Positions 52,296 through 60,650 of a stretch of DNA of 64,000 nt are shown one piece after another (the first letter of the stretch is position 1; the number at the start of each line of letters is the position of its first letter). The DNA is from a virus, in IMG/VR virus record IMGVR_UViG_3300029923_000015, positions 14,732 through 78,731 of that record, one strand, 5' to 3'. Under the pieces are notes generated by a model. That model saw nothing but the letters and a program-made list of their open reading frames with translations. It ran no database searches and was not told the DNA's origin. Both the position numbers and the translations under genes were made by a program.

Positions 52296-52319
52296 AATTG
52301 TATACTGTATTTGAATTGT

Positions 52320-52397
52320 TGCCTATCTCGGTGTTACTCCGATAAGGGGTATTATCTATGAATTTAGACAATACCCCTTTCCTGTTCTGTAATAGGC
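52320..52397 (-). ncRNA. tRNA-like (tmRNA-TLD-like) structured element
   Basis: On the - strand: GCCTATT/GATAGGC 7-bp acceptor-like stem, an unpaired linker, a 15-bp hairpin, a TCGG-AGTAACA-CCGA T-arm-like hairpin, then AACAA. G.U pairs form only on the - strand. Confidence 0.45.
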
Positions 52398-52450
52398 TCG
52401 ACGATTATAGGTCTTCGTCGGTATTTTTATCTTCATTCATATGTAAAATA

Positions 52451-53637: not shown

Positions 53638-54867
53638 TTATCGCTTGTTAATCAGGGTTAATAACTCATCAATTTCTTTTATTGCATTTATAGCACTTTG
53701 TTCTCCACTCAAAGCGATAGCCTTTCTAGCGATAGCCTTTTTAATGATTTCCAGGTTTCGACTGGTATCAATGAATGAATCATAATCTGTAATTTGTCCG
53801 TCTCGTATTGCTTTCTTTGTCGTTACGATTTCGTTAAATAGTGATTTATATACATTGATACTTGTTTTTGTTTTCAGGTAATTGGTTACTGGCGTCATCA
53901 AATTATTGGTGATCTTTTCAGAATAGTTCTTATTCTTAATGATATCCAAATTTTTAATGTATTTTGACATTTCCAGAATCTTTCGTGGGGAAAGACCTTT
54001 CATCTCTGTAATAGTGTCAATCATTGCAGCCAGTTTATCTTCTCCAAAGTCTGGATAACGATTTAAAATCAGACTCGCTGAGTTTAGTTTGTTGATTTCG
54101 TACTGGAATGGATATGATACAGCGAATCGTTGAGTTAACGCCTCTGTTGAGTCATCTTCAATTACTTCTTCGTATGTTTTGTTGGTAAGCCCGATAATAA
54201 TTTTGGTTTTTATCGGGAAACGTTGATTTCCGTTTCGAATTTCTTTTGAGGTTAATGTATCCTTAAGTGCGGCCAACACTTGTGGATTAGCGTCAAAGAT
54301 CTCTTCGAGAATCACAATCTCACTGTTTGCGAATGAATTTTCACAATTGTATTCGATTGAGCCCGTGTCAGTCATTTTCTTAATATTAATGCCTCCGAAT
54401 AAGTCTTCAACGGTGGTAGCTTCAGATAGCGATTTAATGAATACGCGCCCCTTCAATTCTGCACATGAAAATAATTCGTCACAAACTTCTGATTTACCAA
54501 AACCTCCTTTACCGTATAATATGAGGTTCATATCATTTGACAATGCATTCTTGATAACCTGGGAAGGTCCAGACATGTTAATGAATTTCTTGCTGATAAT
54601 TTCATATATTTTGTCAGAGTTTTTGTATTCGCTCAACAAAATATCACCGAATTCGGCAAGTATGTTTTTCTTCACTTTACGGAATTTTCGTCCGTCAATT
54701 TCCTCGTCGATCCATTCTCCTTCTGATATATATTCGCTATTGTCCTGAATTACGAAGTCAAATGTATTTTTGTCGATGACGATAAATTTACTCGTCTTAA
54801 CTCCGAAATGTTTTTCAGTCTCCATTGGACTAATCAGATAATTTTCTGTATTGGATTTTATATTCAT
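53638..54867 (-). CDS. MoxR/RavA-like AAA+ ATPase
   Basis: Walker A GKGGFGKS, Walker B IVILEEIF, plus EDLFGG, IRNG, GLTN and ALTQRF motifs. Confidence 0.85.
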   Translation of the reverse strand: MNIKSNTENYLISPMETEKHFGVKTSKFIVIDKNTFDFVIQDNSEYISEGEWIDEEIDGRKFRKVKKNILAEFGDILLSEYKNSDKIYEIISKKFINMSGPSQVIKNALSNDMNLILYGKGGFGKSEVCDELFSCAELKGRVFIKSLSEATTVEDLFGGINIKKMTDTGSIEYNCENSFANSEIVILEEIFDANPQVLAALKDTLTSKEIRNGNQRFPIKTKIIIGLTNKTYEEVIEDDSTEALTQRFAVSYPFQYEINKLNSASLILNRYPDFGEDKLAAMIDTITEMKGLSPRKILEMSKYIKNLDIIKNKNYSEKITNNLMTPVTNYLKTKTSINVYKSLFNEIVTTKKAIRDGQITDYDSFIDTSRNLEIIKKAIARKAIALSGEQSAINAIKEIDELLTLINKR

Positions 54868-54971
54868 TTTGATATGTTTTGTTTTTTGATTAACAGAGTA
54901 ACTCCATTCTGTTAACGAAGATTAATAATAGTGATAATTATTTGAACTTTTCCAAGGTTCAATTTAAATTG

Positions 54972-55045
54972 TAGGCCATACGAGATTCGAACTCGTATAC
55001 TATCTTATTTCTAAGATCCCCATGTACCTATGTGGGCAATGGCCT
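54972..55045 (-). ncRNA. tRNA-like RNA with no canonical anticodon loop
   Basis: 74-nt cloverleaf: AGGCCAT-TG-CCCA-CATAGGTACA-TGGG-G-ATCTT-AGAAAT-AAGAT-AGTAT-ACGAG-TTCGAAT-CTCGT-ATGGCCT-A. Confidence 0.8.
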
Positions 55046-55235
55046 TCCGATTATTTTGTCTTTGAAGTGTGCACTATTTCATTGCACTCTACTGATATAC
55101 CCATATACATCTAACGTTTGTTTTTCCCTGGGTTATCATCCCAATTGCAATCTTCTACTTTTTTACATTGCTTTGATCACACATCGCAATACTTTAACAG
55201 GTTGCTAATCGATATGGACGATCCTGTTCTTTCAG

Positions 55236-56213
55236 CTAATTAGCCATTGAATCAAAAATCTGTAATGCTTTCGCATATCCCAGTCCTTTGACTAAATCGC
55301 TAATATCTTTTGTTTTATACTTTTTGTTGATAAAGATTGCATTTATATTATACGCTTTTGATACTTTCCTTGCATATTCAACTCCTGCTTTATCTCTATC
55401 GTAAAAAATCAATATTCTTTTAAACCTTTTTTTCAGGTTATTCATTACACTCTCTGGTATTGTAACGCTTTCGCTCGAAGGAGCAACTGCATCATATCCC
55501 ATCTCATGTAATACCATGACATCTTTCAATGATTTTGTGATAATAAGCAAATCCCCATTTTCCGGTAATTGCTCAAATCCTTGAATATCAAGAGCGTTTA
55601 AATTCCCTCTCCATTTTATCATTTTAGAACCAAAAGGCCTATAAATTTTAAACTTGTTAAACACTTTGTAACAGTACAAAGGGTTTTCTATTTCGTATTT
55701 ACCTTTTACTATTCCATTTGTTAAAAACTTAGAAATTGGACTAACATTGTATATCTTAAGTGTTTCTTTAGATACACCAAAGCTACTCCAAAATTTAATA
55801 TCAGTAAGATTTAATGGCTTTCTGACTACGCTTATAATCGTGTCTTTAATTAATCGTTGCTTATGCTCTGACGACATCATTAATTTTAACCCATTAATAT
55901 TCATATCTTCTGAAATTACTTTCAAGGTCTCTTCATATGTATTTAGGTTTTTTAGTCGTTTAACAAATTTAAATACGTTTCCGCAGTCATCGCTTGCCAA
56001 GTCTTTATACAATAGATCTCCCGTTTTTCTACTTACAAAAATTCCAAATGAAGGATTTTTGTCATCTCGTAACGGACTATTATATATATAACCTATTTTA
56101 AAATCACCTATATATTTAGAGAAGATATCATAATCAGTTACTTTCTCTAGTATATTTTGCATTGTAATTTTGGCCTCTGCGTTTTGATTTAGAATAGTAT
56201 TGGTATTATACAT
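55236..56213 (-). CDS. dnaG: DNA primase (DnaG-like, TOPRIM)
   Basis: SPLRDDKNPSF N-terminal domain; LIITKSLKDVM, APSSE, FYDRDKAG and KDISD motifs typical of crAss primases. Confidence 0.88.
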   Translation of the reverse strand: MYNTNTILNQNAEAKITMQNILEKVTDYDIFSKYIGDFKIGYIYNSPLRDDKNPSFGIFVSRKTGDLLYKDLASDDCGNVFKFVKRLKNLNTYEETLKVISEDMNINGLKLMMSSEHKQRLIKDTIISVVRKPLNLTDIKFWSSFGVSKETLKIYNVSPISKFLTNGIVKGKYEIENPLYCYKVFNKFKIYRPFGSKMIKWRGNLNALDIQGFEQLPENGDLLIITKSLKDVMVLHEMGYDAVAPSSESVTIPESVMNNLKKRFKRILIFYDRDKAGVEYARKVSKAYNINAIFINKKYKTKDISDLVKGLGYAKALQIFDSMAN

Positions 56214-60385: not shown

Positions 60386-60583
60386 GACAGATAATTTGGA
60401 GTTACAAACTTGTAGGCGTTTCGTGGACGCCTCGTTGTCTGATTTTACGCTTGACTGTCCAGTTAATCACAATACTTTGATTACGAGTCTCTGTATTATA
60501 GTCGTATACTGTAACGCAACACCAGTCTTTAGACCCTTATGAAGCTAACGAACTCTATTTGCCCTTTTTTTAAATTATCTGTC
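60386..60583 (-). ncRNA. Candidate ~200-nt structured RNA
   Basis: A perfect 12-bp closing stem GACAGATAATTT/AAATTATCTGTC encloses several hairpins. The strand is assumed from the flanking genes. Confidence 0.45.
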
Positions 60584-60586
60584 TTT

Positions 60587-60650
60587 TGTTAAAGCTTGGG
60601 AATTGGACCCAATTACACTTCTTCTAGTGCATTTACCATTACTTCTTTGT
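60587..60650 (-). ncRNA. Degenerate tRNA-like element
   Basis: On the - strand: AATGGTAA D-loop-like segment, GCACT-AGAAGA-AGTGT arm, TTGGG-TCCAATT-CCCAA T-arm, then ...AACAA. The acceptor stem is weak. Confidence 0.4.

Follow-up and report, generated by a model that had tools for sequence, protein, structure and literature searches.

The stretch of viral DNA analysed here (64,000 nucleotides, hereafter the window) carries, between a primase gene and an ATPase gene, a tRNA-like cloverleaf without an anticodon, designated TLS1, whose stems covary among related phages. The reading preferred here, to which a probability of about one half is given, is that TLS1 is a phage "t-element", that is, a signal that would be cut by RNase P and RNase Z and would thereby punctuate the replication operon. 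The following paragraphs describe the fold and the conservation of the element, its 3' end and its neighbourhood, and the class to which it seems to belong; the known systems that it resembles and the other explanations for it are considered afterwards.

The preliminary description had presented TLS1 as a cloverleaf whose anticodon loop is replaced by a 6-nt loop amounting to a GAAA tetraloop; the sequence reads exactly so (Table 1), and both the fold and the Rfam score agree with it. Its stems comprise 22 pairs, all of them Watson-Crick, with zero unpaired stem cells; the 3:70 pair is G-C, and the anticodon loop consists of the six nucleotides AGAAAU, with neither U33 nor an anticodon. In the minimum free energy structure an A-U pair within this loop closes as well, which gives a 6-bp stem capped by the GAAA tetraloop. 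The fold has a z-score of -3.76 against shuffled sequences, with 0 of 200 shuffles folding equally well, and the cloverleaf persists when the whole 373-nt spacer between the primase and ATPase genes is folded. Within the T-arm, GAGTTCGAATCTC corresponds to the GTTCRANYC core of the motif GGTTCRANYCC, the first and last positions of which differ.

Table 1. Features of TLS1 and its surroundings (positions in the window)
Feature	Position	Strand	Description or basis
TLS1, anticodon-less tRNA-like cloverleaf, A1 to discriminator A73	54972..55045	-	Rfam, fold, direct reading, compensatory changes in relatives
TLS1 acceptor stem, AGGCCAT/ATGGCCT, 7 bp	55045-55039 / 54979-54973	-	followed by U8, G9
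TLS1 D-arm	55036-55019	-	4-bp stem CCCA/TGGG, 10-nt loop CATAGGTACA containing GG, then G
TLS1 GAAA-capped hairpin, ATCTT-AGAAAT-AAGAT	55017-55002; tetraloop 55011-55008	-	
TLS1 variable loop, AGTAT, 5 nt	55001-54997	-	
TLS1 T-arm, ACGAG-TTCGAAT-CTCGT	54996-54980	-	
TLS1 trailer CAA (C74 encoded, C75 and A76 not)	54969..54971	-	pattern of related phages' tRNA genes
DnaG-type DNA primase gene, directly upstream of TLS1, same orientation	55236..56213	-	PHROG 12622, E 2.3e-43; Toprim and Zn-ribbon domains
190-nt spacer, primase stop codon to TLS1	55046..55235	-	comparison with relatives
Hairpin TTGAAC-9 nt-GTTCAA, just 3' of TLS1	54942..54962	-	stem kept in L001, L002, L004, L005
Second hairpin TTAACAG-12 nt-CTGTTAA, leader of the ATPase gene	54890..54915	-	conserved TATTATTAA motif upstream of the hairpin
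MoxR-type AAA ATPase gene, downstream of TLS1	53638..54867	-	Pfam bpMoxR 8.7e-18, AAA_5 1e-15
TLS2, second anticodon-less tRNA-shaped element	52316..52398	-	fold; pairing-preserving changes in L004
TLS3, weak degenerate relative of TLS1	60587..60650	-	model R1 10 bits, E 4.6, not significant alone

The Rfam tRNA model (RF00005) misses TLS1 in a scan with default filters and finds it once the speed filters are relaxed, with 37 bits over model positions 1-71 (gathering cut-off 29). The E-value is 4.2e-6 in a local search and 1.1e-7 in a search of the whole 78.7-kb virus record, where TLS1 is the sole match to this model; Rfam families other than tRNA give no match to it. ARAGORN does not call TLS1 as a tRNA; it reports 0 tRNA genes and no tmRNA in the window, and a genuine tRNA was found nowhere in the window's own genome. 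The 77-nt element alone, compared as DNA with a phage collection, gave only generic T-arm matches to assorted phage tRNAs, which assign it to no ancestral isotype, and the spacer DNA had no match in the phage collection.

Orthologous loci (L001, L002 and so on) were fetched by means of the primase protein, the primases of these relatives being 53-86% identical, and the relatives keep the element directly past the primase stop codon. In L001 (primase identity of 86%) the architecture is identical, with an anticodon-arm stem CTCCTA/TAGGAG where the window has ATCTTA/TAAGAT, and with a T stem GTGAG/CTCAT; in L012 and L013 (60%) the hairpin stem is one pair shorter and the cap is still UAGAAAUA. 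The window and L001 differ at 14 of the 44 paired positions and at none of the 33 unpaired ones (Fisher p = 1.7e-4), every pair being preserved except 1:72, while the D-loop, the UAGAAAUA cap and the variable loop AGUAU are identical across the window, L001 and L012. The same 6-nt loop is present in independent metagenome assemblies from other samples, and since these reproduce the sequences, the loop is not an indel artefact, an error against which the preliminary description had cautioned.

Because the Rfam scans lost TLS1 and its orthologues (those in L001-L010 were missed at E-values up to 0.01), a custom acceptor/T-arm scan and a purpose-built covariance model were used instead. This model, R1, was built on the acceptor and T stems and recovers orthologues in ten lineages. 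In the resulting alignment of 10 sequences 94% of the cells are paired, as opposed to 24-43% when the partners are slid, changes on both sides are found in 11 of the 12 acceptor/T pairs, and the observed covariation score is reached by 0 of 500 shuffles. Positions 1 and 72 are mismatched (A.A or A.G) in 7 of the 10 sequences, the stacked helix then being of 6+5 bp. The G.U pairs form on the coding strand only. RNAalifold, applied to a six-sequence MAFFT alignment, recovers the acceptor stem, the T-arm and the upper part of the GAAA hairpin, with the D region misaligned. R1 is tuned too closely to the window's clade: E-values of only 2-5 are reached by TLS2 and TLS3, and a match at 2789-2869 was discarded, being inside an ORF. 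When viral and metagenome contigs were scanned with patterns for further close relatives, most of the matches were attributable to chance, and lineages other than L001 and L012 did not emerge. Taken together, the degree of pairing and the double changes indicate that TLS1 is a functional folded RNA under selection and not a decaying pseudogene, in line with the original proposal of a non-decoding tRNA mimic that is not the product of random decay, a proposal with which the covarying stems, the invariant loops and the conservation of the element in relatives all agree.

The anticodon arm takes various forms in the orthologues. It has 6 bp and a GAAA cap in the window, L001 and L014, 5 bp and GAAA in L012 and L006, 4 bp and GUAA in L049, 3 bp and UAAA in L016, and 5 bp with a UGU triloop in L010; it is missing from L005, a 59-nt element that consists of the acceptor, one D-like arm and the T arm, and it is replaced by approximately 80-95 nt in L002-L004 and L011. 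This comparison shows that the arm is dispensable and is a structural strut, not a decoder. The earlier idea of a decoy for anticodon nucleases thus becomes unlikely, there being no anticodon loop to attack and whole arms being deleted in relatives. Some variants have non-canonical T-loops (AGCGAKA, AGUAACA). In the AGCGAKA subclade (L006:4035-4065, L010, L011, L014) the TGCCC of the acceptor 3' strand can also pair with a conserved downstream GGGCA or GGGCG, a pairing that would compete with the acceptor stem and could constitute a structural switch.

The 3' end of TLS1 has to be seen next to the genuine tRNAs of related phages, which score 48-72 bits in five related crAss-like genomes. In all 18 of the tRNA genes that ARAGORN finds in these genomes the discriminator (N73) is followed by C74, and in 17 of them the trailer is CAA, CTA, CTT, CGT or another sequence and not CCA, the full CCA being encoded in 1 of 18. 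The statement that TLS1 ends in CAA rather than CCA is therefore correct as far as the sequence goes, and the peculiarity once attached to it disappears, since nearly all genuine tRNA genes of the relatives also lack the full CCA. The tails of TLS1 and its tRNA-like relatives (ACAA, ACTA, ACTT, ACGG) follow the same N73-C74 rule, and for this reason these elements look as if they were made for the 3' maturation route of real tRNAs. The genuine tRNA genes with N73-C74 and mostly non-CCA trailers are those of L176-L179, L115-L119, L024 and L091, and the pattern has the appearance of a rule that holds for phage tRNA genes throughout the lineage and that would call for a CCA-adding enzyme. One of these loci (L177:496-568), in the 96-kb genome of relative G004, holds an amber suppressor tRNA (anticodon CTA, labelled "Pyl" by ARAGORN), and this points to a recoding of TAG in the G004 lineage.

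TLS1 is located in a minus-strand replication module that also includes a DnaB-like helicase, Sak4 and a PD-(D/E)XK exonuclease. The nearest named relatives of its primase belong to crAss-like phages, with approximately 53% identity to those of Suoliviridae such as cr10_1. The 190-nt spacer upstream of TLS1 is mostly missing from those relatives whose element begins 4-9 nt past the primase stop, and in L049 the gap is 60 nt; local hairpins are present in this spacer (55046-55235, minus strand). A sequence downstream of TLS1 weakly resembles a sigma-70 promoter, and expression of the ATPase gene may therefore be independent of processing. The second gene downstream, a 394-aa ORF, gave no domain matches, and no genes for tRNA-related enzymes were found in the replication operon. 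The closest relative has a group I intron (L001:545-794, Rfam RF00028, 76.6 bits) about 2.3 kb upstream of the primase gene, and no such match exists in the window. As for the genes that follow the element, the comparison gave no specific link to MoxR, several relatives having other genes in that place, and a dedicated partnership with MoxR was rejected on the same grounds (the elements of L012, L016 and L049 precede other genes).

Elements of this kind are not confined to the orthologues of TLS1. A strict scan, which demanded a canonical T-loop, a 5/5 T stem, pairing at acceptor positions 2-7 and a distance of 500 nt or less from the primase gene, was run on 99 non-redundant primase loci and found elements on the coding strand in 35 of them and antisense in 1, shuffled sequences predicting 0.75. 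The loci were fetched by way of the primase, so that the link to this gene is in part a sampling effect and the 99-locus count does not establish an enrichment over other gene borders. ARAGORN accepts one of these elements as a normal tRNA (tRNA-Glu, in L024) and calls another "tRNA-???". While the acceptor/T scaffold is constant, the length of the middle domain varies between 11 and 138 nt; the shortest form, present in six loci, is a bare minihelix, TAGCCTG-11 nt-TGTAG TTCGATT CTACA-CAGGCTA-ACAA. In the window's clade the elements start 4-9 nt past the primase stop, and in Suoliviridae-like contigs they end 16-23 nt before the primase ATG; this position, always on the coding strand, fits the suggestion of an mRNA processing signal that had been made from TLS1 itself. 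The published Suoliviridae genome cr10_1 (NC_055875.1) has an unannotated element (L184:586-684) in the 247-nt spacer upstream of its primase gene, with the acceptor GAGAGTA...TACTCTC, the T-arm GAGG-TGCAAGT-CCTC and the tail ACTA, 16 nt before the ATG; just upstream of it there is a second T-arm-like hairpin, GGGGG-TTCGAAT-CCCCC. The cultured phages crAss001, phi14:2 and DAC15 have neither spacer nor element beside the primase gene and thus cannot serve as models for TLS1, and no element is found beside that of L015.

Two further candidates lie in the window. TLS2 is located past the 394-aa ORF and 23 nt before the next ATG, so that TLS1 and TLS2 bracket the gene pair of MoxR and the 394-aa ORF. 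It has the acceptor AGCCTAT/ATAGGCA (with 1:72 being A.A), a 15-bp helix, a 4-bp hairpin with the 7-nt loop AGUAACA, and the tail ACAA; for its fold a z-score of -7.8 was obtained, the changes in L004 preserve its pairing, and its matches to the Rfam tRNA model and to model R1 are not significant. TLS3 has a D-loop similar to that of TLS1, a CUAGAAGAAG segment, the T-arm TTGGG-TCCAATT-CCCAA and the tail ACAA, and its acceptor stem is poor. Directly after TLS3 there is a domain of approximately 200 nt (60386-60583, minus strand) with a 12-bp closing stem GACAGATAATTT/AAATTATCTGTC, ahead of the next ORF. L120 and L121, from elsewhere in the genome of a relative, hold elements that score below the tRNA cut-off, are rejected by ARAGORN and, on reading, have no normal anticodon arm. 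In other loci (L095:1343-1481, L100:1359-1485, L071, L107) a normal D-arm and T-arm flank 60-140 nt that replace the anticodon loop, and these inserts are shorter than a group I intron would need to be. L100 and L086 present one scaffold with different inserts; CUAGAAAUAG also occurs in L100.

The acceptor/T helix, the elbow with its GG and C56, the discriminator and C74 are the features that RNase P, RNase Z and the CCA-adding enzyme read. The retention of elbow and acceptor features had been pointed out from TLS1 at the outset and stands, given that the acceptor stem, the T-arm, the D-loop GG and the tRNA-type trailer are all kept, in agreement with recognition by these enzymes. TLS1 can thus be pictured as a tRNA-derived RNA that would have lost decoding and kept the stacked acceptor and T helices, the elbow formed by D-loop and T-loop, A73 and C74. 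It would be transcribed within the minus-strand replication operon, presumably together with its neighbours; RNase P of the host would cleave on its 5' side, which would give the primase mRNA its 3' end, and RNase Z or a comparable enzyme would cleave past the discriminator or C74, which would leave the 5' end of the downstream RNA. These cuts would punctuate the polycistronic transcript and free a stable RNA of approximately 74 nt, which the CCA-adding enzyme may complete, and the former anticodon arm would be a mere structural strut with a stable GAAA tetraloop as its cap. This role in punctuation is favoured because the parts used by the maturation enzymes are kept and those used for decoding are gone, and because of the tight position at the gene border, the coding strand, the G.U pairs in the RNA sense, and the match with t-elements and with MALAT1/mascRNA.

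The t-elements of plant mitochondria were reportedly treated by Hanic-Joyce in 1990. They serve RNase P and RNase Z as signals, their ends are also those of mRNAs, and the RNAs released from them gain non-templated C or A residues (PMC1920247, Forner et al., 2007). Like them, TLS1 is a non-canonical cloverleaf that retains an acceptor stem and a T-arm matching the core of GGTTCRANYCC, and its place is where the co-oriented primase and ATPase genes adjoin, on their coding strand, just as plant t-elements lie at 5' and 3' borders of protein genes in polycistronic transcripts (co-transcription being probable for TLS1). Unlike them, it belongs to a bacteriophage of Bacteroidota-type hosts, shares no homology with them, is only predicted to be cleaved, and has a conserved GNRA-capped anticodon arm and loops under strong sequence conservation. 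In the case of MALAT1, the upstream RNA owes its 3' end to RNase P, and a small tRNA-like RNA arises through the action of RNase Z and the CCA-adding enzyme (PMC4919922), and the same source also supports which parts of a tRNA are recognised by bacterial maturation enzymes. The mascRNA and menRNA of MALAT1 and MEN-beta resemble TLS1 in having a tRNA-like fold at the 3' end of a longer RNA and a degenerate anticodon loop, and differ from it in belonging to eukaryotic nuclear lncRNAs.

Among phages, the CI RNA of P4 and the stable "species 1/2" RNAs of the T4 tRNA cluster are matured by the RNase P of the host. The C4 antisense RNA of P1/P7 is also phage-encoded and RNase P-processed (PMC4919922). 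All of these are, like TLS1, small phage RNAs with a tRNA-like acceptor region, maturation by RNase P being a prediction in the case of TLS1. TLS1 is a much closer look-alike of tRNA than C4 and CI (37 bits with the Rfam tRNA model), and these two have an antisense loop that pairs with sites in their own operon, whereas no such complementarity was found for the D-loop of TLS1. The tRNA-like domain of tmRNA and the YrlA module share with TLS1 the mimicry of acceptor and T-arm without an anticodon. However, tmRNA has G3.U70, a tag ORF and pseudoknots, all of which are absent from TLS1, a continuous RNA of 74 nt in which ARAGORN sees no tmRNA; YrlA has a permuted topology and Ro/Rsr as its partner, whereas the topology of TLS1 is that of a normal tRNA. 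Neither the ATPase nor the 394-aa ORF downstream of TLS1 matches TROVE/Rsr, no TROVE protein was detected, and TLS1 has no match to Y RNA in Rfam.

Several observations count against a processing role. The constancy of the loops in the window, L001 and L012 exceeds what would be needed for a bare cleavage signal. Relatives with 82-86% primase identity have three types of element at the same site (window/L001, L002 and L005), which may point to turnover, or to a diversification greater than processing alone requires. The optimal context for RNase P has U at -1 and G at +1; the -1 nucleotide of TLS1 is A, and together with the mismatched 1:72 pair (7 of 10) this makes for a context that is non-optimal. 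The weak promoter match downstream, the absence of the element from L015, crAss001, DAC15 and phi14:2, and the non-canonical T-loops of some variants also count against this role.

Some of these observations would be explained if the released tRNA-shaped RNA were the product itself, a possibility that is tentatively kept as the foremost alternative. TLS1 would then be a tRNA mimic, stable and acting in trans, or a naturally occurring "tRNA scaffold", that might titrate or inhibit a host factor reading the elbow or the acceptor end (a defence toxin directed at tRNAs, or an enzyme of modification or processing), or that might present a small regulatory RNA; the function would be carried by the body or, in relatives, by the variable insert that replaces the anticodon arm. 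This idea is in keeping with loops that are invariant while stems change, the UAGAAAUA cap being kept across clades with 60-86% primase identity, with a hypervariable middle domain on a constant acceptor/T scaffold, and with close relatives (82-86%) that carry different elements at the same site. The CI RNA of P4 is a phage precedent for a small RNA processed by RNase P. The C4 RNA of P1/P7 is another (PMC4919922). On the other hand, neither a partner protein nor an RNA target was found, the replication operon has no gene for a tRNA-related enzyme, and a middle domain free of constraint would be expected to show just the same diversity. A search for antisense targets, in which the reverse complement of the 15-nt D-loop region was compared with the 64 kb at up to 3 mismatches, found only the region itself, with 1.18 matches expected by chance; the other loops are too short for such a search.

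A more speculative and rather doubtful extension concerns crAss-like phages as a group, namely the Suoliviridae-like contigs and the window's clade. The acceptor/T-arm scaffold might be a natural expression cassette that is excised and stabilised by the tRNA enzymes of the host, and the D/anticodon region a fast-evolving cargo slot, holding anything from a bare GAAA hairpin to inserts of approximately 140 nt and yielding trans-acting small RNAs, so that TLS1 would be the minimal member of an unrecognised class. Such RNAs could be sponges or inhibitors of tRNA-directed immunity or enzymes of the host, or regulators of replication genes.

That TLS1 is instead a functionless, decaying tRNA gene, a pseudogene derived from an ancestral tRNA beside the primase gene, is very unlikely. 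Real tRNAs do exist in the relatives, including the tRNA-Glu upstream of the primase gene in L024, and the element is absent from L015 and from cultured Steigviridae. Nevertheless, neutral decay would hit the loops and break the pairs, and what is seen is compensatory change in 11 of 12 pairs, a pairing of 94% in lineages none of which has an anticodon, perfect stems in the window, and 0 substitutions in 33 unpaired positions against 14 in the stems; these observations already disfavour decay strongly. It is just as improbable that the element acts as DNA, either as a replication origin or single-strand initiation signal for the primase or as an attP-like fragment of a host tRNA. Its constant adjacency to the primase gene in many lineages could be taken in that sense, and hairpins are possible in single-stranded DNA; but the tRNA-specific T-loop, the D-loop GG and the tRNA-type trailer are kept, similar elements occur away from the primase gene (TLS2, L120, L121), and the link to this gene partly reflects the sampling. 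Against an origin, the only GC-skew switch in the window is at approximately 50 kb, where transcription converges, and not at 55 kb. Against an attP site, patterns of 25 nt and 19 nt (T-arm plus acceptor 3' strand) had 0 matches in the bacterial genome contigs of 185,579 species, and the acceptor sequences covary freely, without matching a host tRNA. Finally, it is barely conceivable that TLS1 is a tRNA that decodes by way of an unusual 6-nt anticodon loop, for frameshifting or for a reassigned codon, and orthologues with 3-6-bp stems, four different caps or no arm at all effectively refute this idea. In its favour are the tRNA-like remainder of the body, the stop-codon recoding for which crAss-like phages are known, and the CUA suppressor tRNA of a relative; against it, the loop closes into a GAAA tetraloop without U33, ARAGORN rejects the element, and the long ORFs of the window are open under table 11.

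Non-decoding, tRNA-like processing modules are known from other systems. For Crassvirales, no description of tRNA-like elements was found in the literature, where one preprint mentions only low-scoring tRNA pseudogenes, and the public records carry no annotation of them. Crassvirales rank with the most abundant gut phages and, to our knowledge, how their long operons are converted into individual mRNAs is barely known; likewise, we know of "tRNA punctuation" until now only from mitochondria and a few lncRNAs. Conserved anticodon-less tRNA mimics at gene borders would make it testable for phage gene expression. The elements also account for some of the "pseudo" or undetermined tRNA calls in crAss-like genomes, and annotation pipelines should therefore not count them as tRNAs. 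Should the released RNAs prove to be trans-acting, they would represent a new family of small phage RNAs that have a tRNA as their scaffold.
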